Under the pieces are notes generated by a model, which saw only the letters and a list, made by a program, of their open reading frames with translations, had not been told where the DNA came from and did not search any database. The position numbers and the translations under genes were made by a program. DNA of 64,000 nucleotides, taken from positions 25,825 to 89,824 of the forward strand of contig CATLFA010000002.1 of NCBI GenBank assembly GCA_949927585.1, written 5' to 3'. Shown in pieces: positions 4,841 through 64,000 of this stretch. How positions within the stretch are numbered: position 1 is the stretch's first letter; the number at the start of each line of letters is the position of its first letter. This DNA is from an uncultured Clostridiaceae bacterium (lineage in GTDB: Bacteria; Bacillota; Clostridia; TANB77; CAG-508).

Positions 4841-4990
4841 TTGTAGGGAATAGAATCGCTCGTGTGTTATTTGAGGAATTTATTTAAATGAATAATAAAG
4901 AGTACAAACCTGAGGTTTGATGTAGGGGCTAAATTGGTAAGGAATGCCTAAGAGAATTTACCAAATTTAGCCCTTAAAATTTTTGCAGGT
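4841..4990. repeat. Composite intergenic repeat with ACAAACCTgAGGTTTGATGTAGGGG and GGTAAGGAATgCCTAAGAGAATTTACC modules
   Basis: Modules recur at 47071-47096 and 45450-45476; local GC is higher than the surroundings. Confidence 0.6.
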
Positions 4991-5081: not shown

Positions 5082-6860
5082 ATGATTATAAAAAATAAGA
5101 AGAAAATAATTTTAATAACACTAGTAATATTATTGTTTATAATAGCAATAACATTATTAGTATTAAATCAAACAGGAGTGATAAATACAATTATAGAAAA
5201 TATTAATAAGGAAGAAATAAAAAAAGAGATAAGCTATGAAGTATATAAACATGTAAACGGACAAACAGCAATGCTATTAGTAGCAGAAGATACAGAAAAT
5301 GGAATAGAAAAAATAATATATCCAAACAATGAAATGGAGTTATATTGTAATGGAAAAACAAAAGTAGCATTTGACTACAATACAGATATAACAGGAAAAG
5401 AAAGTTTAACATTCAAGCTAGTAAATACTTTAGGAGAAGAAATAGAAAAAACAATAAAAATAAATGATCAATTTTATTTAGATATGATAAATCATAGTAT
5501 TACAAAAGAAACAGAAACACAAAAAGTATTAACAGTAAATTATAAAGAGGGAAGTTCAACAAAGCAATATAAGATAGGGGATACATCAAACTGGGTTAAT
5601 TATACAAATACAATAAGATTAGATGATTATCAAATATTAGAAGCCTTAGGAAATGAAAGTAGAGAAGTAAAAGTAAGTTTAAGGCAAATAGATAACATAG
5701 GAAATGAAATAATAGTACTAATAAAATATATAATACCAAATAGTATAACATATAAACAGGAAGATACAGTAATAGAAGGAGAAAGTATATTAGCATGTGT
5801 AGAAAATAATAATTTAGAATCAGGAAATTATATATTTAAAGTAACAGGAACAGTACAAGAGCAAAATGAGCAAGGAGTGCTAGAAACAAAAACAGAAACA
5901 CTAGAATACCCAGTAGAACTATATAATTATAATGAAGACGCAAACTATATAGGGCAAAATTATACATTAGTAGGAAATACGGCATATATAGGAATGGGAA
6001 AAGCAAACTCAGAAAAGAGAATGTTAATACTAAAATATAATAAGAATTTAACAATAAGTGAAGGAATAACAATAACACCAACAGGAACAAATGAAAGTAT
6101 AAATGGAGCAACATACCTTTGCACCAAAAAAGGAATGTTTATATATTGTGCAGGAACACTAACCAATAATGGAACAATAACAATGACAGCAAAAGGGACA
6201 GTAAACCAAGAAGGAGAAGATGTATACTTATATAAAAACGAAGATAATACTTATGAATATATACCAGCAGTAGGTGTTACTGGAGCAAGTGGAATATCTA
6301 AATATGGAGGAATTCGCTTTCGTGGCAAAAGTCCAAGTATAGCGACAGATAGAAAAACTGGCGGAGGTGGCTCTGGAGGTTTATATAATGCCTATTTTAA
6401 TGTAACTGCTGTATCAGGAAATGGTGGAGCAGGAACATCATATTCTGGTGGCTCTGGAGGGGGGTCAGGTAACGGTTTGACACGTGGTAGCTCAGGAAGT
6501 TCAGCAGGAGGATATGGCGGAAGTGGTTATGTAGGAGGAGCAGGTAATCCAGGAAGAAATGGTGGACAAACAGGTACAGGAGGGCTTCTTATAATATGTG
6601 CAAATACAATTAAAAACAATGCAGTAATTTCATCAAATGGAAGTTCCACTATCTATGGATACGAATCTAGCGGTGGAGGCTCTGGAGGTGGAAGTATAAA
6701 TATATTTTATAAAAGTTCAATGCTAAAAGGAGTAATATCAGTAACAGGAGGTGCAGGAGGACAATCAAAAAATAGTAATGAACGAGGAGGAGGTGCAGGA
6801 GGAACAGGTTGTACTACAATAGGAAATATCTCCACAGGAACATTTGTAAAAGATGAATAA
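5082..6860 (+). CDS. Membrane-anchored hypothetical protein with a glycine-rich, beta-helix-like C-terminal region
   Basis: N-terminal signal-anchor 'KKIILITLVILLFIIAITLLVL'; C-terminal 170 aa dominated by GGxGxG/SGGGSGG repeats; locally GC-richer codons; no LPXTG motif. Confidence 0.5.
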   Translation: MIIKNKKKIILITLVILLFIIAITLLVLNQTGVINTIIENINKEEIKKEISYEVYKHVNGQTAMLLVAEDTENGIEKIIYPNNEMELYCNGKTKVAFDYNTDITGKESLTFKLVNTLGEEIEKTIKINDQFYLDMINHSITKETETQKVLTVNYKEGSSTKQYKIGDTSNWVNYTNTIRLDDYQILEALGNESREVKVSLRQIDNIGNEIIVLIKYIIPNSITYKQEDTVIEGESILACVENNNLESGNYIFKVTGTVQEQNEQGVLETKTETLEYPVELYNYNEDANYIGQNYTLVGNTAYIGMGKANSEKRMLILKYNKNLTISEGITITPTGTNESINGATYLCTKKGMFIYCAGTLTNNGTITMTAKGTVNQEGEDVYLYKNEDNTYEYIPAVGVTGASGISKYGGIRFRGKSPSIATDRKTGGGGSGGLYNAYFNVTAVSGNGGAGTSYSGGSGGGSGNGLTRGSSGSSAGGYGGSGYVGGAGNPGRNGGQTGTGGLLIICANTIKNNAVISSNGSSTIYGYESSGGGSGGGSINIFYKSSMLKGVISVTGGAGGQSKNSNERGGGAGGTGCTTIGNISTGTFVKDE

Positions 6861-12242: not shown

Positions 12243-13583
12243 ATGAAAAAAGTAGCATTTTACACACTAGGTTGCAAAGTAAATCAATATGAAACAAATG
12301 CAATGATAGAGCAATTTATAAAAAAAGGATATGAAATAGTAAATTTTGAAGAAAAGGCAGATATATATATCATAAACACTTGTACAGTAACAAATATGGC
12401 AGATAGGAAGTCAAGGCAAATGCTAAGAAGAGTAAAAGAAATAAATAATGAAGCTTTAGTAGTAGCATGTGGTTGCTATGCACAAGTAGCGAAGGAAGAG
12501 TTAGAGAAAATACCTGAAATAGACTTAATATATGGAACTAACGAGAAAAACAAAATAGCTGACTACATAGAAAATGTCCCATTGGGGACGTTTCAAAATG
12601 GGACATCTGTCACTTTTGGGAATATAAACAATTCTAAAGTTACAGACGTAATGTATCAAAAAGAATTTCTAGACTTTGGTACAACACTATATACTGAAAA
12701 AACAAGAGCTGTTATAAAAGTTCAAGATGGATGTGATAGATTTTGCAGTTATTGTATAATTCCATATGCAAGAGGTCATGTGAGAAGTAGAAAAGTAGAA
12801 AGTGTTATAGAAGAAATAAAAGAGATAGCAAAAGAAGGAATAAAAGAAGTAGTTATAACAGGAATACATGTAGCTTCTTATGGAAAAGACTTTAAAGAAG
12901 ATATAAAACTAATTGATTTACTAGAAAAAGTAAATGAAGTAGAAGGAATAGAAAGAATACGTTTAGGTTCAATAGAACCAACAATAATAACAGAAGAATT
13001 TTTAGAAAGATTAACAAAACTAGAAAAAATATGTGACCATTTCCACCTATCACTTCAAAGTGGATGTGATGAAACTCTAAAAAGAATGAATAGAAGATAT
13101 AAGGCAGAAGAATTTGCAGAAAGCACTAAGCTTCTAAAAAAAGCGTATCCAAATGTAGCGTTAACAACTGACATAATAGTAGGTTTCCCAGGAGAAACAG
13201 ATGAAGAATTTGAAAAGACATATAATTTTCTAAAAGAAATAGATTTCTACAAAATGCATATATTCAAATATTCACAAAGAAAAGGGACAAAAGCAGCTGT
13301 AATGCCAAATCAAATAGATGGTAATATAAAAGAACAAAGAAGTAGAAGATTAATAGAACTATCTGACGAAAATGAAAAAAGACATAATGAAAAATATATA
13401 GGTAAAAAAGTAAAAGTTCTATTTGAAGAAAAAGAAGGCGAGTATATAAAAGGCCATACTACTAATTATATGGTTGTAAAAGTACCATATAGAGAAATAG
13501 AAAATACAATTGAGAAAGTCACAATTGAAAAAATAGAGAATTTAGAATTAATAGGAAAATATCAAAAAGCAAAGTCTTTATAA
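12243..13583 (+). CDS. mtaB: tRNA (N6-threonylcarbamoyladenosine) methylthiotransferase, MiaB-like radical SAM enzyme
   Basis: 'FYTLGCKVNQYET' MTTase N-domain, radical-SAM triad 'CDRFCSYCIIP', C-terminal TRAM. The linker contains a 46-nt repeat element (12578-12623). Confidence 0.85.
   Translation: MKKVAFYTLGCKVNQYETNAMIEQFIKKGYEIVNFEEKADIYIINTCTVTNMADRKSRQMLRRVKEINNEALVVACGCYAQVAKEELEKIPEIDLIYGTNEKNKIADYIENVPLGTFQNGTSVTFGNINNSKVTDVMYQKEFLDFGTTLYTEKTRAVIKVQDGCDRFCSYCIIPYARGHVRSRKVESVIEEIKEIAKEGIKEVVITGIHVASYGKDFKEDIKLIDLLEKVNEVEGIERIRLGSIEPTIITEEFLERLTKLEKICDHFHLSLQSGCDETLKRMNRRYKAEEFAESTKLLKKAYPNVALTTDIIVGFPGETDEEFEKTYNFLKEIDFYKMHIFKYSQRKGTKAAVMPNQIDGNIKEQRSRRLIELSDENEKRHNEKYIGKKVKVLFEEKEGEYIKGHTTNYMVVKVPYREIENTIEKVTIEKIENLELIGKYQKAKSL
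12578..12623 (+). repeat. TTGGGAC-word element copy A (cccattggggacgtt-tcaaaatgggac-atctgtcacttttgggaat), in-frame inside mtaB
   Basis: Near-identical arms at 32064-32159; diverged copies at 25261-25312 and (reverse) 56055-56103. Confidence 0.7.
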
Positions 13584-13619
13584 AACTTTGCTTTTTGATA
13601 TTTAAGACTAAGATACATT

Positions 13620-14072
13620 TTAAATGTATTTTAAAATAATGCGATTGTAAATGAAATTTGCCTTAGAAGTTTTAAGCAAATCAATGAAGCCTAATATAGC
13701 ATAATAAAGCGATATGTCAATTTTACGAATATCGGACTTAGTTTCCTGAAATATTTTTGTTAAACTAATTATAGAAGATAAATTTTCCTCCAATGAATCA
13801 ATTAGAGGTTTTTTCCGATTGGCCAAATAAAGAGCAAATAAGCAATCATACAATTTTTTATGTCGTTCCTCCAAATTATTATGGTCTGCATTACCAATAC
13901 ATAAGGAAAATACATCAATTAATATTTTAGCTGTTGACTCATCAGTTTTGCATGTTTGTAAAATATCTCGTTTAGCATGTTGCATGTTACAGAAATATTC
14001 TATTTCCCGTACCTCCTCAGGTGTAAAGCTTTTTTCAGGGTAAGATTTAGTATCAAACATAATTATATTCAA
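13620..14072 (-). CDS. Hypothetical protein (150 aa)
   Basis: ORF with RBS 'ggaggttg'; divergent from the 14237 gene; no family recognised. Confidence 0.45.
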   Translation of the reverse strand: MNIIMFDTKSYPEKSFTPEEVREIEYFCNMQHAKRDILQTCKTDESTAKILIDVFSLCIGNADHNNLEERHKKLYDCLFALYLANRKKPLIDSLEENLSSIISLTKIFQETKSDIRKIDISLYYAILGFIDLLKTSKANFIYNRIILKYI

Positions 14073-14236
14073 CCTCCTTCTTTATACAATAGAATAAATA
14101 TATTATAACATACAAAAAAATGTTATGTCAAATGCAATATTAAAAAGGTCAAGTTGACATATTATATAATTTCATATATAATATAAAAAGTTTTAAATTA
14201 AATAATAGACCAATTCTTAATTAAGGAGGTAAAACT

Positions 14237-14776
14237 ATGGAACAATACAAATTATCAAATATTTTACGGAATGTTCTTGAAAATATAGGTATTCCAGAAA
14301 GTTACTACAGCATTGGAAAGTATAAAGAAGGAGCTACATGTATTGAAAAAGTAGGTAAAGTATATGTAGTATATAATGCTGAAAGAGCGGAAAGATATGA
14401 GCGCATAGAATGCAAAAACGAACAAGATGCATGTGTTGAAGCAATTCGCAGAATAGCTAAAGATAATAAAGACTTTGAAATATTAGAAGAAGAGTTTTAT
14501 GAAGCTAAAGCTAGAAAAGTATTAAAAGAAGTATTGACAAAAGAAGGAGTGCCTAGGCACAAGTATTGTTTAGAGGGATACGCTGAAGATGCAGTGTGTA
14601 TAGAAAAAGGTTCTAATGGGTATTTTGTATATGTGGTAAAAGAAGATGAAGAAAATGAATTAATAAAACACCCCAACATAGCAAAAGCTTTTATAGATGT
14701 TATTTCAAGACTTATAAGAAATGATATTAAAGAACAAAAAGTAATATATGATTTCATAAGTGAATTAAAAAAATAA
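14237..14776 (+). CDS. Hypothetical protein with an internal tandem duplication of a ~60-aa Cys-containing module
   Basis: Repeat 1 'YSIGKYKEGATCIEKVGKVYVVYNAERAE...' aligns with repeat 2 'YCLEGYAEDAVCIEKGSNGYFVYVVKEDEE...'; RBS 'aaggagg'; sigma-A-like promoter TTGACA-17-TATAAT at 14152-14180. Confidence 0.5.
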   Translation: MEQYKLSNILRNVLENIGIPESYYSIGKYKEGATCIEKVGKVYVVYNAERAERYERIECKNEQDACVEAIRRIAKDNKDFEILEEEFYEAKARKVLKEVLTKEGVPRHKYCLEGYAEDAVCIEKGSNGYFVYVVKEDEENELIKHPNIAKAFIDVISRLIRNDIKEQKVIYDFISELKK

Positions 14777-14806
14777 TAATACAAATATAAGATTCAAAAG
14801 AAAAAA

Positions 14807-14830
14807 GCCATATGGCTTTTTTCTTTTGAA
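14807..14830 (+). terminator. Rho-independent terminator 'aaaaaagccatatggcttttttc'
   Basis: Palindromic stem plus T-run. Confidence 0.7.
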
Positions 14831-17027: not shown

Positions 17028-17077
17028 AAAGATAAACCAAAAGGTTAGAAACCTTTTGGTTTGTTTTTTAAGAATGT

Positions 17078-17299
17078 CTATAATAAATCTTTTATATTAA
17101 CATTTAAAGTATCAGCTATATCAAATAAGACTTCTAAAGACATCTTTTTAACAACGTTAGGAGCTTCAATTTGTGTTAAATAGCTATAACTTATGCCTAC
17201 ATCATTTGCTAACTGTTCTTGGGTCAATCCTCTTTTCATTCTATACTTACTAATTTTTATCCCAATTAATTTATATCTTTCACTATGTTTAAAACTCAT
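17078..17299 (-). CDS. XRE-family helix-turn-helix transcriptional regulator
   Basis: 'LIGIKISKYRMKRGLTQEQLANDVGISYSYLTQIE' HTH_3 signature; divergent from the pilin-like gene. Confidence 0.8.
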   Translation of the reverse strand: MSFKHSERYKLIGIKISKYRMKRGLTQEQLANDVGISYSYLTQIEAPNVVKKMSLEVLFDIADTLNVNIKDLL

Positions 17300-17400
17300 T
17301 TTTATCACCTAATAAAAATTTTACAATAAATTATGTGTTTTTGCTTTCATAAATAGTGAAAGTATGTTATAGTGGATAATATAAAAATAGGAGGTAATAT

Positions 17401-18264
17401 ATGAAAAATGAAAAGTTAAAAGAAAATAGTAAATGTGATAAGATAAATGGAATAACATTAATTTCTTTAATAATAACAATAATAGTGTTAATTATCTTAG
17501 CAGGTGTAGCCATATACTTAAGTGTAGGAAATAATGGGATATTTAATACAGCAAAAGAAGCAAAAGAGTTAACAAATAAACAAATAGCGACAGAAAAGAT
17601 AAATTTGAAAATAACAACGGCGCAGATGAATAAATATGCAGAAAGGCAAGAAATGCCAACTCTAAAGGAATTATCAGAAGTATTAAGAGATGATATGGAA
17701 ATAGCATATGTAACAGAGAAAAGTCAAATAGCAAGTACTAAATATGAAGTAGGAGAAAATCCAAGTTCAATATATACAAAATTAAATGATTATTCATATG
17801 AATTTGAAATAAATGGTAAGTTGCAATTAGCAAGTATAAATGGAATAAAAATTGCAGAAAATGAAGAAAGTAATTTATTTGATTATTCAACTAATGAAGA
17901 AAGAATAGTAGGTAAATGGGTAAATGGAAAAAATGTTTATGAAAAGTTTTTAGATATAGGTAATGCTACACAATATGGGTTAGTATATGATGGGAAGAGT
18001 CAAGGAGTATCGATTCCAGAAAAAGAGATATGTAGTAACATAGATGAGATAATTGCTAGTCAAGTTAGATGTACTGGGATGTATTATAATACAAGAACAT
18101 TGCCTTTTGGATGGGGAGGTATATATACCAATTATGCTACCATATCACATGAGTATTCAAATAAAAAAATTATGTTATGGATGGCTGAGGAATGTACACG
18201 ATCTGAAAATAGCAATACAGCCAAAATTCAGATTATTATTCAATATACTAAAACTAATAATTAA
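17401..18264 (+). CDS. Hypothetical secreted/membrane protein with a prepilin-like N-terminus (non-canonical, Ser at +5)
   Basis: 'KINGITLISLIITIIVLIILAGVAIY' resembles a class III signal peptide / pilin N-domain (G|ITLIS) but lacks Glu5. Confidence 0.4.
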   Translation: MKNEKLKENSKCDKINGITLISLIITIIVLIILAGVAIYLSVGNNGIFNTAKEAKELTNKQIATEKINLKITTAQMNKYAERQEMPTLKELSEVLRDDMEIAYVTEKSQIASTKYEVGENPSSIYTKLNDYSYEFEINGKLQLASINGIKIAENEESNLFDYSTNEERIVGKWVNGKNVYEKFLDIGNATQYGLVYDGKSQGVSIPEKEICSNIDEIIASQVRCTGMYYNTRTLPFGWGGIYTNYATISHEYSNKKIMLWMAEECTRSENSNTAKIQIIIQYTKTNN

Positions 18265-18316
18265 AAATAAGAACACACCAAAATGTTTAGGGTATTTTGA
18301 TGTGTTTCTATTTTTT

Positions 18317-19618: not shown

Positions 19619-19885
19619 AAAATTACTTCTCCTTTCGAACATATCTTTATTATTTTATACATATTTTATCATATATTACAACAAAATTGTGAAAATTGTG
19701 TGACAATTTTGTTGATTTTATAAAAACATACATATATAATAATATCATAAAAAGCAAGAATAAAATTTTCTAAGCTCATTCTTCGCTGAGAAAATCTAAT
19801 TCTTCCATAACTATTTTCTAAGGAAACTCATGTACTTACGTGGATGACTTTCCAAAGAATATAGAAAGAAAGGAAATATGAAAAA

Positions 19886-20056
19886 TGAAAAAAGAAAAAG
19901 GAATGACTCATATAACACTTGTTATTTGGATATTAATTATAATTGTTATAGGATATTTAGGTATGAATTTTATATTAAAAGAAACACGGAAAAGGGAAAG
20001 TAGAAAACCTAAAAACAGATATGTTATTAGTTCAAGGAAAGATAAAAGTAATTGAA
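19886..20056 (+). CDS. Small hypothetical membrane protein (56 aa)
   Basis: ATG with RBS 'gaaaggaaat'; one TM helix 'ITLVIWILIIIVIGYLGMNFIL'. Could be the N-terminus of the next ORF if a frameshift is present. Confidence 0.3.
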
Positions 20057-20371: not shown

Positions 20372-20999
20372 TTGAAAGAAAAAGAATTACAAAGATTAAT
20401 AGAATTAAAACAAATAGAAGAAAACTTACATTCACAAGGAATAGAATACATATGTGGAATAGATGAAGCAGGACGTGGGCCATTAGCAGGGCCAGTGGTA
20501 GTTGCAGCAGCAATAATGCCAAAAGATTCAATGATAGAAGGAGTAAATGACTCTAAAAAAGTATCAGAGAAAAAAAGAGAATTACTATATGAAAAAATAA
20601 CTCAAGAAGCAATAGCATGGGGAGTAGGAATAATAGACCAAAAAGAAATAGATAGAATAAACATACTAAATGCAACAAAAGAAGGTCTAACAGAAGCGGT
20701 AAAAGCATTAAGTGTAACACCAGATAGAATAATAGTAGATGCACTAAATGGAATAGATACGCTTCGGAATACCATACACATCAATAATAAAAGGAGATGC
20801 AAAATGCTATTCAATAGCAGCAGCTTCAATAATAGCAAAAGTAACAAGAGATAGAATAATGCGTCAATGGGATGAAATATATCCTATGTATGGATTTGAA
20901 AAACATAAAGGTTATGGAACAAAAGCACACATAGAGGCAATAAAAGAATATGGATTATGCCCATTACATAGATTAAGTTTTACTAAAAATATTCACTAA
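20372..20999 (+). pseudogene. rnhB: Ribonuclease HII, interrupted by a single-base (+1) frameshift near codon 135
   Basis: N-terminal 'CGIDEAGRGPLAGPVVVAAAI' in frame 1 stops at 20854. The conserved C-terminal half '[31 protein letters not shown]...[10 protein letters not shown]' continues in the +1 frame to 20999. Deleting the C in 'cttCgga' (20768) fuses them. Confidence 0.8.
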
Positions 21000-21035
21000 A
21001 AGGACACCATTAAAAAAAGAAAAGAGAAAGATAAA

Positions 21036-21368: not shown

Positions 21369-21549
21369 GATAGTCATTTTATTGTTTAGTTACTTTTAAA
21401 GGAATATTCATAATATATAAAAATAACACAAAAGCATTGAAACTTATGTAAATATATGTTATAGTATAGAAAGTAGAGAATAGATATCCTTTTTACATTA
21501 ATAATTAGCAACTAGAGTTAAATAAAATTATTTAAAGGAGGAAAAGAAT

Positions 21550-24239: not shown

Positions 24240-24581
24240 GAACAGTAGATTGGGGACGGAGCAATTATAATAGGAGCAATAATGATAGCATTTAGTGTAA
24301 CATCATTTTACACATACAAATCAAACGAAATAATATGGTCAGTATTTAGAATATATACATTTGCACAATATCCAGTCGAAATATACAACAAATTTATACG
24401 AATACTAATAACCTTCATATTCCCATTTGTATTTGCAACATACTACCCAACATTGAACTACTTAGAAATGGGAAATGGAGGGTTAATGTACTTATCACCA
24501 ATAGTAGCAATTATATTTTTAATAATAGCAGTGAAAATTTGGAACTGGGGGTTAAATAGGTATAGGAGTACAGGAAATTAA
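24240..24581 (+). pseudogene. Orphan 3' fragment of a polytopic membrane (ABC-2 permease-like) gene
   Basis: Frame opens directly after the pdp stop ('...GDGAIIIGAIMIAFSV...') with no plausible start or RBS; only C-terminal TM helices are present; a partial TTGGGGACGG unit sits at the junction (24249-24259). Confidence 0.35.
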
Positions 24582-25172: not shown

Positions 25173-25260
25173 AACTATATCCTCCTTGAAAATAGAATAT
25201 CATTTATATTTCGACTTTATTCTATCATATAGAATAGAAAAGAGCAAGTAGTTTTTTGTT

Positions 25261-25312
25261 CCCATTCCAATTAGGGACGTTTCCAATTGGGAAATCTGTC
25301 ACTAATTGGAAT
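25261..25312 (+). repeat. TTGGGAC-word element copy B (diverged: cccattccaattagggacgtt-tccaattgggaa-atctgtcactaattggaat)
   Basis: Same three-unit layout as copies A and C, with CCAATTGG palindromic variants. Confidence 0.55.
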
Positions 25313-30589: not shown

Positions 30590-30762
30590 ATTTAAGTTCC
30601 TCACTTTTTCATATTCTTAGGAAACTTACAACCATGGTAGGTAATTTTCCTAAGAATACAGTTATAAAAGAATTAGATTTTCTTATATGGTTTTGCCACT
30701 TAGAAAATTTTATTCTTGCTTTTTAATTATACATATAAAATTAATTTTAAAACTATAAGTTA

Positions 30763-32046
30763 TTATTTTACAGTTATTTTTTCAGTTCCACCCATATAAG
30801 GTCTTAAAACTTCAGGAATTATTACACTTCCATCTTCTTGATAATTGTTTTCTAAAATAGCAATTAACATTCTAGGTGGAGCAACTACTGTATTATTTAA
30901 TGTATGTGCATAATAGTTTCCTTTTTCACCTTTAATACGAATTCCAAGTCTACGTGCTTGTGCATCTGTTAAGTTAGAACAACTTCCAACTTCAAAGTAT
31001 TTTTTCTGTCTTGGACTCCAAGCTTCAACATCACAGCTTTTAGCTTTTAGGTCTGCTAAATCTCCACTACAACATTCTAAAGTACGAACTGGAACACCCA
31101 TACTTCTAAATAATTCAACAGTATAGTTCCACATTTTTTCATACCATTTATAGCTATCTTCTGGTTCACAAACTACTATCATTTCTTGTTTTTCAAATTG
31201 ATGTATTCTATAAATACCACGTTCTTCTAAACCATGAGCACCTTTTTCTTTTCTGAAGCATGGAGAATAAGAAGTCATTGTATAAGGCATATTTTCTTTA
31301 TTTAATAGTTGTCCTTTAAACTTACCAATCATAGAATGTTCAGAAGTACCAATTAAATATAAATCCTCACCTTCTATTTTATACATCATAGCATCCATTT
31401 CTTCAAAACTCATAACGCCAGTTACAACATCAGCTCTTATCATATAAGGTGGAATACAATAAGTAAAGCCTTTATTAATCATAAAATCTCTAGCATAGGT
31501 AAGCACTGCAGAATGAAGGCGTGCAACATCTCCCATTAAATAGTAAAAACCATTTCCAGCAACTCTACGAGCAGAATCTAAATCAATTCCACCAAGACTT
31601 TCTAAAATTTCTCCATGGAAAGGAATTTCATAATCTGGAACAATAGGCTCACCATATTTTTTAATTTCAACATTTTCGCTATCATCTTTTCCAATAGGAA
31701 CAGACTCATGAATAATGTTAGGAATTTTCATCATTCTTTCAGTAACTTGAGCCTCATATTCAGCTTCTAATTTTTCATTTTCTACTAATTCCTCGTTAAT
31801 TTTTTTAACCTCTAACTTAATAGCTTCAGCTTCATCTTTCTTACCTTGTCTCATTAAATTACCAATTTCAGAACTTAAAGAATTACGTTTAGAGCGAAGT
31901 TCATCACCCTTCAATTTAGCTTCCCTATTTTTAGAATCAAATTCAATAACTTCATCAACTAAAACAAGTTTATGGTCTTGAAATTTGTTTTTCATGTTTT
32001 CCTTAACAACATCTGGGTTATCTCTTAAAAATTTGATATCAATCAT
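30763..32046 (-). CDS. serS: Serine--tRNA ligase
   Basis: Coiled-coil N-arm, class II motifs ('FRKEKGAHGLEERGIYRIHQFEKQE', 'GSCSNLTDAQARRLGIR'). Confidence 0.95.
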   Translation of the reverse strand: MIDIKFLRDNPDVVKENMKNKFQDHKLVLVDEVIEFDSKNREAKLKGDELRSKRNSLSSEIGNLMRQGKKDEAEAIKLEVKKINEELVENEKLEAEYEAQVTERMMKIPNIIHESVPIGKDDSENVEIKKYGEPIVPDYEIPFHGEILESLGGIDLDSARRVAGNGFYYLMGDVARLHSAVLTYARDFMINKGFTYCIPPYMIRADVVTGVMSFEEMDAMMYKIEGEDLYLIGTSEHSMIGKFKGQLLNKENMPYTMTSYSPCFRKEKGAHGLEERGIYRIHQFEKQEMIVVCEPEDSYKWYEKMWNYTVELFRSMGVPVRTLECCSGDLADLKAKSCDVEAWSPRQKKYFEVGSCSNLTDAQARRLGIRIKGEKGNYYAHTLNNTVVAPPRMLIAILENNYQEDGSVIIPEVLRPYMGGTEKITVK

Positions 32047-32420
32047 AATTTACCTCCTTAGTTCCCATTGGGGACGTTATCTCTGCTTAAGTTATCTGTA
32101 ATTCGCTAACGCTCAAACAACTAACTTATCCTTTTGGGGTATCTGTCACTTTTGGGAATTTTTTTATTTTAAAATGTATGGGCTTGGCCTTGTGTGTGCC
32201 CGCGTGGCGAAGCCACTTTTGTTCCTACATTATAATAAAAACAAAAGCCCTTATGCCTAATAAAAGCATAAGGGCGAATATTTTTCGCGGTGCCACCTTA
32301 ATTTAATTTTGGCTTTTATAAACCAAAAATTAATCTCTGAAATGCTTATAACCTAGCACAACACGGTTTCACTTTTTAGGTGAAAAGCAATAAAAGTAGA
32401 TTCCTAATTTGTTTTAACCT
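32047..32420 (-). ncRNA. T-box riboswitch leader of serS, with a ~190-nt repeat-derived insertion between terminator and RBS
   Basis: On the minus strand: T-box consensus AAUUAAGGUGGCACCGCG (plus 32286-32297) and terminator GCCCUUAUGC-UUUUAUUAG-GCAUAAGGGC + U-run (plus 32237-32275). Downstream are a GGCCTTGTGTGTGCCCGC module (32170-32215) and TTGGGAC element copy C (32064-32159), then RBS 'aaggagg' and ATG. Confidence 0.8.
32064..32159 (+). repeat. TTGGGAC-word element copy C (arms as in copy A, with a ~60-nt internal insert)
   Basis: 'cccattggggacgtt' ...60 nt... 'ttttggggtatctgtcacttttgggaat'. Confidence 0.7.
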
Positions 32421-32643
32421 AACTTACACCAACCGCAGGCTCTCTTTATAAAACTTAAAATTAGTACTATTCTTTTATTATAGCCATTTATTATTAATAA
32501 ATAGTTTAACACAGAAACAATAAAAATACAACTAAAAATATTGAAAAAATAAATTTTATATGACAAACACATATTATGTAACCATAAAAAGAAAAGATGT
32601 TTACAAAATATAAACATTCATAAAATTGCAGGAGGAAATAACT

Positions 32644-45433: not shown

Positions 45434-45490
45434 CTGTAGGGAATTAATCGGTAAGGAATACTTAAGAGAATTTACCGAATTACGCCCAAA
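45434..45490. repeat. Intergenic repeat module 'ctgtagggaattaatcggtaaggaatacttaagagaatttaccgaattacgccc' inside the gatC-gatA spacer
   Basis: Matches 4935-4961 (ggtaaggaatgcctaagagaatttacc) and partially 63870-63900 (gattaatcggtaagtaatac). Confidence 0.6.
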
Positions 45491-45527
45491 ATATAACATT
45501 CAAACTCAAAGAAAGGGAGTAAATTTA

Positions 45528-56054: not shown

Positions 56055-56103
56055 TGTCCCTAATGGCAATTTTCTGCCAAAAAAGGCCGTCCCTTTTGGC
56101 AGA
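56055..56103 (-). repeat. TTGGGAC-word element copy E (reverse orientation), immediately upstream of the clpC RBS
   Basis: Reverse complement reads 'ccaaaagggacggcc...ccattagggacac', matching the GGGAC units of copies A-C. Confidence 0.5.
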
Positions 56104-56115
56104 AAGGAAGAAAAA

Positions 56116-58575
56116 ATGACATATAAATTTACAAAAAGAGCTGAGAAAGCAATTGAAATTGCAAATAATATAGTAGGGACTCTAGGACATAATTATATAG
56201 GTACAGAGCATCTTTTGTATGGTTTAGTAAAAGAGGGCGCTGGAATTGCAAGTAAAGTATTAGAAAATCAAGGTGTTACAGCAGAAAAAGTAATGGTAGA
56301 AATAGAAAACCTTATAGGTATAAATCAAGATAGTGCAAGTGAAATTAATACTGCAATTGGTTTTACACCTAGAACTAAAAGAGTAATTGAAACAGCTTTT
56401 AGAGAGGCTAAAAAACAAGGGAACGATTATATAGGAACAGAACATTTATTAATAGGCATTATGAAAGAGGGAGATAGTGTAGCAGTAAGAATAATGCTTG
56501 ATTTAAATGTAGATCCTCAAAAATTATACAATGAAATTGTAAAGGTTTTAAATGAAGATGATATAACTTCAAACAATGGGAAAAGCTCAAGCTACAGTCA
56601 AAAAGGAAGCTATAATCAAACTACTACTTTAAACCAATATGGAACAGATTTGACTAAAAAAGCTGAGGAAGGAAAATTAGACCCTGTAATAGGTAGAAAA
56701 GATGAAATAGAAAGAGTTATACAAATACTTTCAAGAAGAAATAAGAATAATCCATGCTTAATAGGTGAGCCTGGAGTTGGTAAAACAGCAGTAGTTGAAG
56801 GTTTAGCTCAAAAAATAGTAGTAGGTGATGTACCAGAATTACTAAAAGATAAAAGAGTAGTAACTTTAGATATATCAGGAATGGTTGCAGGAGCTAAATA
56901 TAGAGGAGACTTTGAAGATAGAATAAAGAAGGTTTTAAATGAAGTAAAAAAAGCAGGAGATGTTATTTTATTTATTGATGAAATACATACTATTGTTGGA
57001 GCTGGCTCAGCAGAAGGAGCAGTAGATGCTGCAAATATTTTAAAACCACTTTTAGCAAGAGGAGAAATAAAAGTAGTAGGAGCAACTACACTAAATGAAT
57101 ATAGAAAATATATTGAAAAAGATAGTGCATTAGAACGAAGATTTAGCCCAGTAAATGTCCAAGAGCCAACTGCTGAAGATACTATAAAAATATTAGAAGG
57201 TATTAGAGATAAATATGAAGCACATCATAATGTGAAAATTACTGAAGAAGCAATTAAATCAGCAGTAGAACTTTCAGTAAGATATATAAATGATAGGTTT
57301 TTGCCAGATAAAGCAATAGATTTAATAGACGAGGCAGCTTCTAAAATTAGAATGAAAGCATATACACAACCAGAGTCAATAAAAAATATAGAAGAAAAAA
57401 TAGAAAAAATAGAAAAAGAAAAAGTAGATAGTGTTCACATGCAAGACTTTGAAAAAGCTGCAAAATTAAGAGATGATAAAAAAGAATTAGAAGAAAAATT
57501 AGAAAAAGAAAAGAAAAAGTGGGAAAGTAAAAATAGTAAAGCTATAATTACACTTACAGAAGAAGATATTGCAGAAGTAATTGCTAGTTGGACTAGAATA
57601 CCTGTAAAAAGACTAACTCAAGATGAAAATGAGAAACTTAAAAATCTTGAAAAAACATTACATGAAAGGGTAATAGGTCAAAATGAAGCAGTAGAAGCTG
57701 TAAGCAAAGCAATAAGAAGAGGAAGAGTAGGTTTAAAGGACCCAAACAGACCAATAGGTTCATTCCTATTTTTAGGTCCAACAGGTGTAGGAAAAACAGA
57801 GCTTTCAAAAGCATTAGCAGAAAGCTTATTTGGAAAAGAAGATTCAATGATAAGAATAGATATGTCGGAATATATGGAAGGACATAGTGTTTCAAAATTA
57901 ATTGGTTCACCTCCCGGATATGTAGGTTTTGACGAAGGCGGACAATTAACAGAAAAAATAAGAAGAAACCCATATTCAGTAATATTATTTGACGAAATAG
58001 AAAAAGCTCACCCAGATGTTATGAATATGCTACTTCAAATATTAGATGACGGAAGACTTACGGACAGTAATGGAAGAACAGTTAACTTTAAAAACACAGT
58101 AATTATAATGACTTCAAACATAGGTGCAAGATTAATAACAGATAAAAAATCATTAGGATTTGGCGGAACAAATAATACAAATGAAGAGTTTAAAAAGGAA
58201 TATGAAAACACAAAAAAAGATGTTTTAGCAGAACTCAAGAAAGAATTTAGGCCAGAATTCATAAACCGTATTGACGAAATAATAGTATTCCACAAATTAC
58301 AAAATGAAGAAATAAAACAAATTATAGATATAATGCTTTCGCAAGTTACAAAACGTTTAAAAGAGCAAAATATAGAAATAGAAATTAGTGAAGAAGTAAA
58401 AGACAAAATACTAGAAAATGGAGTAGACACAAACTTCGGAGCTCGCCCATTAAAAAGAGCAATACAAAATATGCTAGAAGACAAAATTGCAGAAGCAATA
58501 TTAGATGGAAAAATAAAAAAAGGAAAAAAAGCAAATGTACAATTAAATGATGACAAAGAAATAATAATAAAATAA
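56116..58575 (+). CDS. clpC: ATP-dependent Clp protease ATP-binding subunit ClpC
   Basis: Two Clp-N repeats, two AAA+ modules (Walker A 'GEPGVGKT' and 'GPTGVGKT'), UVR linker. Confidence 0.95.
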   Translation: MTYKFTKRAEKAIEIANNIVGTLGHNYIGTEHLLYGLVKEGAGIASKVLENQGVTAEKVMVEIENLIGINQDSASEINTAIGFTPRTKRVIETAFREAKKQGNDYIGTEHLLIGIMKEGDSVAVRIMLDLNVDPQKLYNEIVKVLNEDDITSNNGKSSSYSQKGSYNQTTTLNQYGTDLTKKAEEGKLDPVIGRKDEIERVIQILSRRNKNNPCLIGEPGVGKTAVVEGLAQKIVVGDVPELLKDKRVVTLDISGMVAGAKYRGDFEDRIKKVLNEVKKAGDVILFIDEIHTIVGAGSAEGAVDAANILKPLLARGEIKVVGATTLNEYRKYIEKDSALERRFSPVNVQEPTAEDTIKILEGIRDKYEAHHNVKITEEAIKSAVELSVRYINDRFLPDKAIDLIDEAASKIRMKAYTQPESIKNIEEKIEKIEKEKVDSVHMQDFEKAAKLRDDKKELEEKLEKEKKKWESKNSKAIITLTEEDIAEVIASWTRIPVKRLTQDENEKLKNLEKTLHERVIGQNEAVEAVSKAIRRGRVGLKDPNRPIGSFLFLGPTGVGKTELSKALAESLFGKEDSMIRIDMSEYMEGHSVSKLIGSPPGYVGFDEGGQLTEKIRRNPYSVILFDEIEKAHPDVMNMLLQILDDGRLTDSNGRTVNFKNTVIIMTSNIGARLITDKKSLGFGGTNNTNEEFKKEYENTKKDVLAELKKEFRPEFINRIDEIIVFHKLQNEEIKQIIDIMLSQVTKRLKEQNIEIEISEEVKDKILENGVDTNFGARPLKRAIQNMLEDKIAEAILDGKIKKGKKANVQLNDDKEIIIK

Positions 58576-58604
58576 TAAAAAACTGGGCAATGCCCAGTCT
58601 TTTA

Positions 58605-58901
58605 TTACTCATAAAGCTCATACACATCAAAAACAATAGATTCACAAACATGTTCAATACCTTCAATAAAGTAATGGAAAACAGCTTCTTGTTTGGACAT
58701 AGCATTTTTAAATGTATAGTGTAACCTAAAAATGCTAGAACGATGTCCATCTTTATATCTTACATAGCCTTTCCATTCAACAGGTATAGGTTCAGCTTCT
58801 GTTGATAAATGCAAATGCACATCATGTATCCAACCATGCTCCCGTATTTTTATTTCAAAGATAGTAGGAATGTTTGTGTAAGTATCTTCTACGTTTCTCA
58901 T
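58605..58901 (-). CDS. Hypothetical protein (98 aa)
   Basis: RBS 'aaggagg'; contains a CGG codon; no family recognised. Confidence 0.4.
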   Translation of the reverse strand: MRNVEDTYTNIPTIFEIKIREHGWIHDVHLHLSTEAEPIPVEWKGYVRYKDGHRSSIFRLHYTFKNAMSKQEAVFHYFIEGIEHVCESIVFDVYELYE

Positions 58902-58998
58902 AAACATACCTCCTTTTCAATTGAAAAAGATTAGCTAACGTTATTAATATAATTATAATTTAATATGCAGAATATGTCAACAAATATCGAAAAATGAA

Positions 58999-59856
58999 TT
59001 AAATTGGTTCAACATGAATAGTAGTATCATAAATTTTATCTAATCTATTAATTTCTTTTTCTAAGTTATTAGCTAAAGCGTGGCTATCAAATGTAGACAT
59101 ATTTCCATCCACGCAAATTGTAAGAACAACCATATATTGATAACCAACAGGAGAAGTATAGAAATGTTCAATACTTTGTACATTTTCATAGTTTCTAACA
59201 ATATTCAAAATCAAATCTTTAGTATCTTCATCTAAAGATTTATCCATTAAAACATTATAACTCTCCATAAAAATTTTAAAACCAGTAATAGCAATCCAAA
59301 TTGATATTCCAATTCCAACAACACCATCAAGCCAATACACACCAATTAAAGTAGCAAGTACAGAAAGTAAAGTAAAAGTAGTTACAATACAGTCGTTTTT
59401 ATGGTCTTTACTATTAGCCTCAAGTAAAATATTATTATATTTTCTGCAAAGTTTATTTGTATATATAAATAAACTAAGTTTAACTAAAATAGTAATAAAA
59501 CATACTATAACAAGTAGCCATGAAAAACTCATATAATTATGATTAATTAATGTAAAAATAGAATCAAACATTAATTTAATAGCAACAATTATCATTGAAA
59601 CACTAATAAAAAGTGAAAATATATATTCAGCCTTCCCATGACCAAAATTATGACTTTCATCTTTTGGTTCACTAGCAATTTTATTGCCAATAAAAGTCAT
59701 GAGAGAAGCGAAAATATCACCAGCACTATTAGCGCTATCAGCGATCATTGCTTGACTATTAGTTAAAAAGCCAATAGTCCCCTTTATAATTAACAAAAAT
59801 AGATTACCAAAAATTCCTAAAAGCCCTGCTTTCTTAGTTTCTTTAAATCGTTCCAT
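58999..59856 (-). CDS. Cation diffusion facilitator (CDF) family metal efflux transporter
   Basis: Six TM helices with 'HxxxD' pairs ('SANSAGD', 'HNFGHGKAE'), C-terminal cytoplasmic domain; RBS 'gaaggaaggg'. Confidence 0.8.
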   Translation of the reverse strand: MERFKETKKAGLLGIFGNLFLLIIKGTIGFLTNSQAMIADSANSAGDIFASLMTFIGNKIASEPKDESHNFGHGKAEYIFSLFISVSMIIVAIKLMFDSIFTLINHNYMSFSWLLVIVCFITILVKLSLFIYTNKLCRKYNNILLEANSKDHKNDCIVTTFTLLSVLATLIGVYWLDGVVGIGISIWIAITGFKIFMESYNVLMDKSLDEDTKDLILNIVRNYENVQSIEHFYTSPVGYQYMVVLTICVDGNMSTFDSHALANNLEKEINRLDKIYDTTIHVEPI

Positions 59857-60105
59857 AAGACCCTTCCTTCTATATATTAATTTATGATAAATAAGCATAA
59901 GTATAACACAAAAACTAAAAAAAATAAAGGGAATTTTATAGACAGTTTTGAAAAGGTTTATAGATTTGGAGATTAGAAAGATTGGTAAGTGTTTCTACTT
60001 AAAAATTCCTTTACAAACTATTGAAAAAAAAAACACTTTGTGATATAAACTAATTATACGGAAATAAAGGTTTAAAGCAATAATTATAGTTAAGAAGGTA
60101 ATAAA

Positions 60106-61125
60106 TTGAAAAATATTAAAGATTATAATATAGATGAACTTAAAGAAGAACTTATAAGCTTAGGGGAAAAGCCATTTAGAGCAGAGCAAATTTTTAAATG
60201 GTTATATGTAGATAAAGTAAAAGACTTTGATGAAATGACTAACTTATCTTTAAGTTTAAGAGAAAAACTAAAAGATAATTACACTATGTGCAATTACAAT
60301 ATATTAAAAAAGCAAGAATCATCAGATGGTACAAAAAAATACTTATTTGACGTATTAGATGGAAATGCAATAGAAACAGTATTAATGCAATACCACCATG
60401 GAAAAACAATTTGTGTTTCATGCCAGATAGGTTGTAAAATGGGTTGTAAATTCTGTGCATCAACAGGAATAAAATTTGTAAGAAGTTTAACAGCTGGAGA
60501 AATAGTAGAACAAATTTTAGCGGTAGAACAGGATATAGGAGATAAAATCTCTAATATAGTATTTATGGGAATTGGAGAGCCATTAGATAATTACGATAAT
60601 GTTATAAAAGCAATAAGAATAATAAATAATCCAAAAGGTTTAAACATAGGAGCACGTCATATAAGTGTATCTACGAGTGGATTAGTTCCAAAAATATACG
60701 ACTTAGCTAAAGAAAATATACAATGTACATTATCAATTTCATTACATGCAACAAATGATGAAAAAAGAAGTAGCATGATGCCAGTAAATAATAGGTATAA
60801 AATAGAAGAACTAATTAAGGCATGTAAAGATTATATAAAAATAACAAACAGAAGAATATCATTTGAATATGCACTAGCAAAAGATAATAACGACAACTTA
60901 GAAGATGCAAAAGAACTAGTAAAACTGTTAAAAGGAATGCTATGCCATGTAAACTTAATACCAATAAATAAAATAGAAAACGGAAAATTTACAAAAAGTT
61001 CAAATGAAAACATAATGAAATTTAGAGACTACCTAAATGACCACGGAATAGTAGCAACAATAAGAAGAGAGTTAGGCTCAGACATAGATGCAGCCTGTGG
61101 GCAACTACGTAGAAAGAATTTATAG
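60106..61125 (+). CDS. rlmN: 23S rRNA (adenine2503-C2)/tRNA methyltransferase RlmN (radical SAM)
   Basis: 'CVSCQIGCKMGCKFCAST' radical-SAM cluster motif and C-terminal 'DIDAACGQL'. Confidence 0.9.
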   Translation: MKNIKDYNIDELKEELISLGEKPFRAEQIFKWLYVDKVKDFDEMTNLSLSLREKLKDNYTMCNYNILKKQESSDGTKKYLFDVLDGNAIETVLMQYHHGKTICVSCQIGCKMGCKFCASTGIKFVRSLTAGEIVEQILAVEQDIGDKISNIVFMGIGEPLDNYDNVIKAIRIINNPKGLNIGARHISVSTSGLVPKIYDLAKENIQCTLSISLHATNDEKRSSMMPVNNRYKIEELIKACKDYIKITNRRISFEYALAKDNNDNLEDAKELVKLLKGMLCHVNLIPINKIENGKFTKSSNENIMKFRDYLNDHGIVATIRRELGSDIDAACGQLRRKNL

Positions 61126-61135
61126 GGAGGAACGA

Positions 61136-61861
61136 ATGGAAGCTTTTGCAAAAACTGATGTAGGAAAAGCAAGAGATATGAACCAAGATTACTACTATAT
61201 AACAACCGAAGATGAAGAATTAAAACTATATATATTAGCAGATGGAATGGGTGGTTATAAAGGTGGAGAAGTTGCAAGTAGGCTTGCAACAATTTCAACC
61301 AAAAACTATATAGAAAGTAATTTTGATAACATCATAAAAGAAAAAGAAGAAATACAAAAATTAATAAAAAATGCTATGGAATATGCAAACATGGTAGTAT
61401 ATGAAAAATCTAAAGAAGATGAAGAATTAGATGGAATGGGTACTACTTTAGAAGTATGTTTAATATATAATAATAAGGTATATATAGGACATGTGGGAGA
61501 CAGTAGAATATATAGAATACGAAATGATATAATCAGAAAGATAACTAATGACCATAGTTATGTAGAAAAACTAGTAAAAGATGGAACTATAACAAAAGAA
61601 GAAGCGATTAATCATCCAAAGAAAAACATGCTAACTAAAGCTTTAGGCTGTACAGTATTTGTTGAGCCAGATGTTACTGTAAAAGGTTTTATAAAAGATG
61701 ATATAATTCTTATATGTTCAGATGGGCTAACAAACATGATAAAAGAAGAAGAAATATATAATATAATAAAGCAAGATTATAAAATAGCAACACAAAGGTT
61801 AATAGAGAAGGCAAATGAAAATGGGGGATATGACAATATCACAGCAATTATAATTAAGTAA
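61136..61861 (+). CDS. stp: PP2C-family Ser/Thr protein phosphatase (Stp/PrpC)
   Basis: 'DVGKARDMNQD', 'LADGMGGYKGGEVAS', 'SDG' metal-binding motifs; RBS 'tagggagg'; precedes prkC. Confidence 0.85.
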   Translation: MEAFAKTDVGKARDMNQDYYYITTEDEELKLYILADGMGGYKGGEVASRLATISTKNYIESNFDNIIKEKEEIQKLIKNAMEYANMVVYEKSKEDEELDGMGTTLEVCLIYNNKVYIGHVGDSRIYRIRNDIIRKITNDHSYVEKLVKDGTITKEEAINHPKKNMLTKALGCTVFVEPDVTVKGFIKDDIILICSDGLTNMIKEEEIYNIIKQDYKIATQRLIEKANENGGYDNITAIIIK

Positions 61862-61895
61862 GATTAAATTCCAAAATACCAAAGGAGAGAATAAA

Positions 61896-63842: not shown

Positions 63843-63910
63843 AATCATAAAAGCAATTTATAGAATAAGAGATTAATCGGTAAGTAATACTAAAATTATA
63901 CACTAAATAA

Positions 63911-63975
63911 ATAAAATAATAATAAACTGAGATAGAAAAGAAATTACCTTTTCTAGCTCAGTTTATTATTATTTT
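63911..63975 (+). terminator. Rho-independent terminator after prkC
   Basis: 'aaactgagatagaaaag-aaattacc-ttttctagctcagttt' plus T-run. Confidence 0.75.
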
Positions 63976-64000
63976 TTTACTAATTTTTCAATTTTGGTAA

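Follow-up and report, generated by a model that had tools for sequence, protein, structure and literature searches.

The window analyzed here, a 64-kb stretch of DNA from an uncultured Clostridiaceae bacterium, carries a short repeat element inside the coding sequence of mtaB, where it is translated as residues 112 to 127 of the product (VPLGTFQNGTSVTFGN). This in-frame copy is a lineage-specific insertion of a repeat of the repetitive extragenic palindromic (REP) type or of its hairpin-forming doublet type (REPIN); we refer to the repeat as family 1 and to its two ends as the L arm and the R arm (Table 1). A sequence-only reading of the window had placed an in-frame string of 46 nt at 12578 to 12623. 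The string is present as claimed, but its limits are not those of the element, which measures 48 nt and starts two bases earlier, at 12576. In MtaB, Pfam UPF0004 spans residues 3 to 98 and Radical_SAM residues 158 to 330, and the element-encoded segment falls in the linker between the two domains. Because MtaB relatives of 429 to 431 aa lacked the segment entirely in an alignment of 120 relatives, the segment is lineage-specific. Many other relatives carried an LGTFPNG-SVPFGN-like segment, some with one additional 18-nt unit.

The linker DNA was found in three states among the contigs compared with the window (designated by L numbers): a sense copy in the window, L152, and L118 (decayed in L118); a full antisense copy, translated as PKGTDYPKGNVPNG, in L150 and L151; and no copy in L119. 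Since the sense, antisense, and empty states were intermixed on a neighbor-joining tree, this linker of ~30 nt either has been struck at least twice or is among the few sites where an insertion survives. The earlier proposal of an in-frame insertion into a tolerant protein linker is supported by these data. In situ inversion as the origin of the antisense copy was rejected, as the entire element is reversed, including its arms, and not the center alone. Separately, gene content adjoining mtaB varies at the strain level. Two stretches of ~1.25 kb each (13568 to 14816 and 17044 to 18313) had no alignment to L059, a contig 96 to 97% identical to the window; L059 replaces the first by 432 nt (~0.8 kb extra in the window) and the second by ~20 nt. 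The unaligned stretches hold the open reading frames (ORFs) 13620 to 14072, 14237 to 14776, and 17401 to 18264.

Table 1. Coordinates of repeat elements and associated features in the window (E values are from the family 1 profile)
Feature	Position	Strand	Remarks
mtaB ORF, host gene	12243-13583	+	446 aa
Family 1 element, 48-nt basic form	12576-12623	+	In frame, sense, within mtaB; E=2e-16
L arm of mtaB copy	12576-12590		
Central unit of mtaB copy	12591-12604		
R arm of mtaB copy	12605-12623		
Family 1 element, 48 nt	25265-25312	+	~82% identity to mtaB copy; between divergent genes; E=6e-12
serS ORF	30763-32046	-	Shine-Dalgarno site adjoins L arm of 32062-32159 copy
Family 1 element, 98-nt long form	32062-32159	+	Antisense to serS; L arm, 50-nt internal module, central unit, R arm
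T-box leader of serS	32267-32490	-	Rfam RF00230, 101.7 bits
Second, related REP-like family (family 2), core CAAAAGGGACGGCCTTTTTTG	56055-56103	-	Directly upstream of clpC Shine-Dalgarno site

Anatomy and dispersal of family 1

Three significant family 1 copies were found in the window, in mtaB, upstream of serS, and at 25265 to 25312. Both arms of the mtaB copy recur exactly at 32064 to 32078 and 32141 to 32159, and a version with two to three mismatches lies at 25267 to 25312. Dinucleotide shuffles predicted 0.17 and 0.01 arm matches, and the observed counts were reached in 0/100 shuffles. A repeat finder joined the three sites as one family (D6), and a profile hidden Markov model (HMM) made from 43 copies, all from other genomes, recovered each of them (Table 1; serS halves, E=2e-7 and E=9e-4). 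The recurrence of the element in the serS leader and at 25265 to 25312, as the sequence-only reading had it, is thus significant. Chance similarity or convergent protein coding has nothing in its favor except the short match length; given the shuffle controls, HMM E values down to 2e-16, and dozens of noncoding copies in other genomes, its probability is negligible. Two other sites that had been counted with the family fell away. The single unit at 24249 to 24259 scored at chance level against the family 1 HMM (E=18), and the clpC-upstream site at 56055 to 56103 (E ~3) belongs to a separate, related family described below. Other weak HMM matches were dismissed as chance.

The copy in the serS leader lies downstream of the T-box, within the transcribed leader, with 3 nt between the end of its L arm and the Shine-Dalgarno site of serS. 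It had been described as split by an insert of ~60 nt. The split is real, but it is not a local insertion: the intervening 50 nt also occur at an unrelated locus, upstream of a gene resembling adhE in a contig from marmot gut, so they form an internal module of a long-form variant of the element. In front of the copy at 25265 to 25312, part of the L arm is duplicated over 7 nt (25258 to 25264). The arms of this copy carry compensatory changes, such that TTCCAATTAG pairs perfectly with CTAATTGGAA; the ortholog in L055 has the left-arm change alone. As an observation apart from the element, a stretch of the serS leader lying after the T-box terminator and before the element (32175 to 32215) appeared by eye as a GC-rich island in a window of 28% GC. 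It holds a GTGGC-TTC-GCCAC hairpin, and no counterpart turned up in the compared contigs.

The family 1 consensus reads TTCCCATTGGGGACG TTTCC-NNNN-GGGGT (ATCTGTCCCTTTTGGGGT)n ATCTGTC(A/C)CTTTTGGGAAT. Its basic unit is a 48-nt imperfect palindrome with an outer stem (TTCCCA/TGGGAA) and an inner stem (GGGGACG/TGTCCCT), and not the two or three direct repeats of TTGGGAC that had been proposed, a word that occurs nowhere in the window. The main lengths are 48, 66, 84, and 102 nt (48+18n), reached by addition of 18-nt ATCTGTCCCTTTTGGGGT units; the 98-nt long form is made by the 50-nt internal module. Inspection of the consensus showed no stop codon in any reading frame. Since all six frames are open and the lengths are multiples of three, any family 1 insertion into an ORF would be translatable. 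In the written orientation the consensus folded at -23.8 kcal/mol (z=-4.4), compared to -16.5 kcal/mol for the complement, which folds more weakly because conserved G-U pairs turn into C-A mismatches.

Across 49 aligned copies, 84.6% of cells were paired, and covariation exceeded that of 500/500 shuffles and of all slid controls. Outer-stem pairs switched from UA to GC and from CG to UA, and subfamilies with matched outer-stem changes were recognized (TTCCCA/TGGGAA, TGTCCA/TGGACA, and GTCCCA/TGGGAC). One inner-stem pair was broken by GTCAC in 17 of these copies. Near the center, GGACG and TCTG-C were invariant; the left flank was frequently TAG or AAG but was not conserved in copies adjacent to Shine-Dalgarno sites. 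Matched arm changes fit a hairpin and also fit a pair of inverted ends recognized by a single enzyme; the data do not separate the two.

Beyond the window, 75 unique copies conforming to one consensus were found in ~0.6 Mb of low-GC gut Clostridiaceae contigs. When species-representative genomes were scanned with a degenerate right arm, chance matches dominated in high-GC genomes and low-GC loci alone were usable; among the matches listed, true copies occurred only in low-GC (25 to 30%) metagenome-assembled genomes (MAGs) labeled "uncultured Clostridiaceae." Two MAGs had at least 7 loci per genome, and one had at least 9 copies. A metagenome scan added 29 more contigs, from alpine shrew gut, marmot gut, and other samples, and there was no match in viral contigs (scan) or plasmids (blastn). 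Only 6/75 copies lay inside ORFs. At 10 or more loci, copies formed tail-to-tail inverted pairs 25 to 170 nt apart, and an inverted partner lay within 400 nt of 20/50 gene-boundary copies.

Orthologous sites differed in the presence of the element. The site in L091 is empty where L060 and L074 hold a copy, which fits exactly into the interval from a stop codon to the following Shine-Dalgarno site. A GH15 glucoamylase-like gene carries in-frame copies, single or arrayed, in three genomes, and unit number differs between orthologous sites.

A Y1 transposase gene between inverted copies

A first lead to an enzyme was a weak tblastn match (E=0.001), obtained with an approximate E. coli REP-associated tyrosine transposase (RAYT) query, to an ORF in L121 located between inverted family 1 copies. 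A query for IS200 TnpA, also approximate, had no match. The gene encodes a product of 258 to 274 aa and is bracketed by inverted copies, with R arms inward, in five related lineages and two genomic contexts: between pth and rng (RNase G/E-like) in L014 and L008 and between the GH15 gene and radA in L121, L134, and L153 to L155. The free-standing doublets described above likewise carry their L arms outward.

Pfam Y1_Tnp matched the product at 49.9 bits (cutoff, 23), with a subthreshold C-terminal helix-turn-helix match. The best NCBIfam match was NF047646, REP-associated tyrosine transposase (61 to 65 bits), compared to ~17 to 20 bits for the IS200 model. A profile of 43 homologs had a single significant match in the PDB (E=0.004), to 4ER8 (E. 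coli TnpA-REP), in which the HUH and tyrosine motifs lined up with those of the profile; a single-sequence PDB search gave no match. Among the 120 closest database clusters, the HUH pattern was present in 116 and Y[IVL]HxNP in 118. The C-terminal tail resembled a translated antisense element in 32/120 homologs, relative to a background of 0 to 1 matches per motif in the body of the protein. Two homologs are labeled "REP element-mobilizing transposase RayT" by JGI. Many others are on contigs of ~1 kb, which is expected because flanking repeats would break assemblies. In the copy table, by eye, this transposase made up 4/7 bracketed genes; no DDE gene was found between copies, the bracketed transposase genes being of the Y1 type. 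In L153, the 3' end of the transposase gene carries an antisense element (6756 to 6830) that overlaps the radA start; the L arm of this element has mutated to TAAAGGAGT, now the radA Shine-Dalgarno sequence.

The dispersal of the repeat, its presence or absence at orthologous sites, and its bracketing of a Y1 gene in relatives bear out the idea of a miniature mobile element put forward from the sequence alone. We conclude that family 1 is probably a nonautonomous REP/REPIN-type repeat that depends for its movement on a RAYT-like Y1 (HUH) transposase whose gene lies elsewhere in the genome, the class being assigned as REP/REPIN-RAYT because a Y1 transposase is associated with it. Judging from architecture and homology, the enzyme would copy and move the elements as single-stranded DNA hairpins, with putative binding, cleavage, and rejoining of the repeat; its own gene is the one bracketed by two inverted copies. 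A copy landing in a tolerant protein linker would simply be translated, the mtaB copy amounting to 16 extra residues between domains, and the copy upstream of serS would be a passenger in the leader beside the ribosome-binding site.

The sequence-only reading had also likened the element to Correia-like miniature inverted-repeat transposable elements (MITEs). Correia elements, MITEs of Neisseria, are 100 to 155 bp long and duplicate a TA target. Like them, family 1 is small and abundant, has inverted-repeat ends, and lies beside genes. An element of this kind would derive from a DDE insertion sequence with terminal inverted repeats, a conventional transposase, and target duplication, and the covariation of inverted arms of ~16 nt between subfamilies, the small size, the dispersal, and the presence/absence pattern are all in keeping with such an origin. 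However, no target-site duplication was visible in the flanks of the 75 copies, the transposases between copies are Y1 and not DDE enzymes, and the modular 18-nt units and tail-to-tail doublets better match arrays of REPs or bacterial interspersed mosaic elements. We therefore consider a MITE origin very unlikely, and the Correia part of the analogy was dropped.

Placement at gene boundaries

Family 1 copies are placed with a strict polarity. The L arm lay within 12 nt after a stop codon, in sense orientation, in 25/75 copies (0 to 3 nt in 18, often with TAG joined directly to TTCCCA), and it adjoined the Shine-Dalgarno site of an opposite-strand gene in ~25 to 30 of the 75 (0 to 4 nt in 17). 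The R arm abutted a gene start in 1/75. Altogether, one arm was flush with a stop codon or Shine-Dalgarno site in ~70% of copies, and L-arm placement held even in intergenic regions of 100 to 600 nt. Possible causes are that single copies descend from doublets which formerly occupied the spacer between stop codon and Shine-Dalgarno site, that the enzyme chooses its targets, or that mRNA structure is under selection. Read-through of the TAG stop codons ahead of many copies was considered and dropped for want of support. As a side observation, the reverse complement of the L arm contains an ATG (CAATGGGAA), and ATG-first ORF calling starts several genes 7 nt within the element (for example, L006 1510, L014 1900, and L074 5396); ATG-first calling may therefore misplace start codons systematically.

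This placement raises an alternative in which the repeat is a cis-acting RNA module of the host, its hairpins kept or co-opted as mRNA signals at gene boundaries. Possible roles would be a 3' stabilizer after stop codons, a protective or insulating 5' hairpin before ribosome-binding sites, or, for doublets, an RNase III site. Besides the flush position of the L arm, sense to stop codons and antisense to Shine-Dalgarno sites, the stronger fold of the sense RNA, the near-consensus state of copies whose flanks have diverged, and the conversion of an L arm to the radA Shine-Dalgarno site in L153 are consistent with such a role. In-frame copies in two unrelated ORFs, the occurrence of both orientations in mtaB, orthologous sites that are sometimes empty, the lack of an Rfam match, and the GTCAC variant that breaks an inner-stem pair argue against it. 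We regard an RNA module as unlikely; it can be compatible with a RAYT-driven origin.

A second alternative, raised with the original description, is an operator array for a DNA-binding regulator, built from GGGAC words at a spacing of 15 to 18 nt. G-rich words are indeed regularly spaced, and several copies lie between a promoter and a start codon. Nevertheless, copies also occur after stop codons and within ORFs, two of them unrelated, in both orientations and beside genes as unrelated as pth, rng, radA, disA, adhE, serS, and mtaB; unit number varies at orthologous sites; the co-varying sequence is an inverted repeat; and TTGGGAC is wholly absent from the window. An operator array is accordingly highly improbable, marginally more so than a MITE origin.

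Returning to the REP/REPIN repeat and its RAYT-like enzyme, several observations weigh against this reading. No transposition event was observed. The flanks of the 75 copies showed neither a target-site duplication nor a fixed target word, and the GTAG tetranucleotide at the hairpin foot is not present in family 1. The NF047646 scores of the transposases fall below the curated equivalog cutoff of 80. With elements at many gene boundaries, some genes could be bracketed incidentally, and the bracketed transposase is known from related genomes, none being found within the 64-kb window. Simple selfish spread would not predict so strict a placement of the L arm. Finally, copies at orthologous sites across species (pth, GH15, and mtaB) stay near the consensus while their flanks diverge, a persistence that could also reflect a host-level function or gene conversion.

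Known repeat systems and further families

REPIN-RAYT systems are treated as long-lived, vertically inherited intragenomic replicators that have been studied mainly in Proteobacteria. Family 1 resembles the REPtrons of E. coli, Pseudomonas, and Stenotrophomonas in consisting of short imperfect palindromes, dispersed, mostly extragenic, and often in inverted doublets, and in bracketing a Y1/HUH gene with inverted copies, the enzyme best matching NF047646 and 4ER8. It differs in several respects: the host is a member of the Firmicutes (Clostridiaceae); the repeat has no GTAG tag, its unit being a composite hairpin of 48 nt to which 18-nt units can be added and which also has a long form of 98 nt; the enzyme has the subthreshold helix-turn-helix at its C terminus, and its 3' end often extends into the adjoining element; and the placement of one arm flush against stop codons and Shine-Dalgarno sites is strict. 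RAYTs of group 1 are also present in Clostridia, and abundant REP 16-mers have been linked to RAYT groups 2 and 3 only (Bertels et al. 2017, PMC5581495).

A formal parallel exists with CGTC-tagged REPs, which include Rickettsia palindromic elements (RPEs) RPE-4 and RPE-6 and the Neisseria repeat dRS3 (Di Nocera et al. 2013, PMC3733652). These were reported from five phyla, Firmicutes not among them, with no associated transposase found; the stem is 8 to 9 bp and starts with AT, the loop is 4 to 5 nt, the 3-nt tail is near CCA (Table 1 of PMC3733652), and head-to-head dimers are the predominant form of the superfamily (PMC3733652). In family 1, the bottom strand of one arm can be read as CGTC-CCCAATGGG-AA and the top strand of the other as TGTC-CCTTTTGGG-AAT; the arms are likewise head to head, and a conserved spacer of 14 to 17 nt separates the tags, which point toward each other. 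In contrast, the arm stems are 3 to 4 bp, the tail is AAT or AAC, and the repeat brackets a RAYT-like gene. Because the arm stems are much shorter than 8 to 9 bp and the tail differs, we treat this as resemblance and not as membership. The ATTCCC...GGGAAT stem presumably resembles that of dRS3. Rickettsia RPEs share with family 1 the presence of in-frame intragenic copies (mtaB and GH15 here); the RPE half of the analogy drawn in the sequence-only reading was sound, two RPE classes being among the CGTC-tagged REPs.

Another Firmicute repeat offers a comparison of layout. Pneumococcal BOX elements have modules of 45 to 59 nt and are not known to have a dedicated transposase. BOX (PMC3049150) and family 1 are alike in having fixed left and right modules, variable internal units, a hairpin, and a mostly intergenic location; there is no sequence similarity between them.

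The sequence family had not been recognized at the outset, and this stands. At the gathering threshold, Rfam matched only the serS T-box in the whole window, literature searches with the sequence strings of the element returned unrelated primers only, and keyword searches returned nothing specific. In the literature consulted, we found neither an earlier description of the family 1 repeat nor a description of REP populations in Firmicutes. It is conceivable, though on balance doubtful, that family 1 represents the first Firmicutes REP/REPIN population with its own RAYT-type enzyme, arranged CGTC/TGTC head to head, and that the host has co-opted it as a polar boundary module. A clear case in a gut Clostridiaceae lineage would widen the REPIN-RAYT picture. 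The present one includes co-varying stem subfamilies, several RAYT paralogs, and at least two to three repeat families in one genome. It also offers a candidate enzyme for the CGTC/RPE-like repeats, which PMC3733652 left without a transposase, and interest would be greater if the CGTC/RPE link or the gene-boundary role proved true. The copies in MtaB and GH15 show peptide segments added to conserved enzymes without breaking them, and the way copies abut stop codons and ribosome-binding sites in a set orientation hints at target choice or a role in mRNA. For annotation, repeats of this kind account for lineage-specific protein inserts, for false ATG starts within the element, and for contigs that break near the transposase gene.

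A second RAYT-like Y1 gene was found in the genome of the window itself. Contig L157 is 99.98% identical to window positions 58317 to 64000 and continues beyond the window in the same genome; the gene lies after queA at L157 15079 to 15571, ~9.35 kb past the window end, and at 21455 to 21947 in L156, a 98 to 99% relative. Its partial product scored 40 bits with Y1_Tnp and 77.8 bits with NF047646 and contains the motifs NHAHIL and YIHNNP. The sequence CAAAAGGGACGGCCTTTTTTG lies directly upstream of this gene in L156 and is identical to window 56078 to 56098 (minus strand); in L157, the 21-nt core precedes the gene with one mismatch. As the core recurs upstream of the second Y1 gene, the clpC-upstream sequence is a member of a second, related family. 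The family 2 element upstream of clpC is absent at the corresponding position in L150.

Two further observations concern repeats of the window. A full family 2 element is present in L059 (6690 to 6740), where the window has only ACTAAAAGGACAC left (~20997 to 21012), as if collapsed between two direct repeats; L059 diverges beyond this point. A third repeat, built in the classical REP manner from GTAG and a stem of 15 to 17 bp (GGGCTAAATTGGTAA ... TTACCAAATTTAGCCC), occurs at window 4921 to 4980 and 45435 to 45494 (80% identical) and in L013 (~6180, minus strand). In L156 and L157, a word similar to it, ATAGGGGCTAAT, is found upstream of the second RAYT-like gene.

Last, two leader-like stretches of ~140 nt in the window, at 19748 to 19900 (plus strand) and 30600 to 30725 (minus strand), are 77 to 80% identical with a 27-nt exact match. 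Neither matched Rfam at the gathering threshold. Each is directly upstream of a gene start, and the pair may represent an undescribed shared leader or riboswitch.

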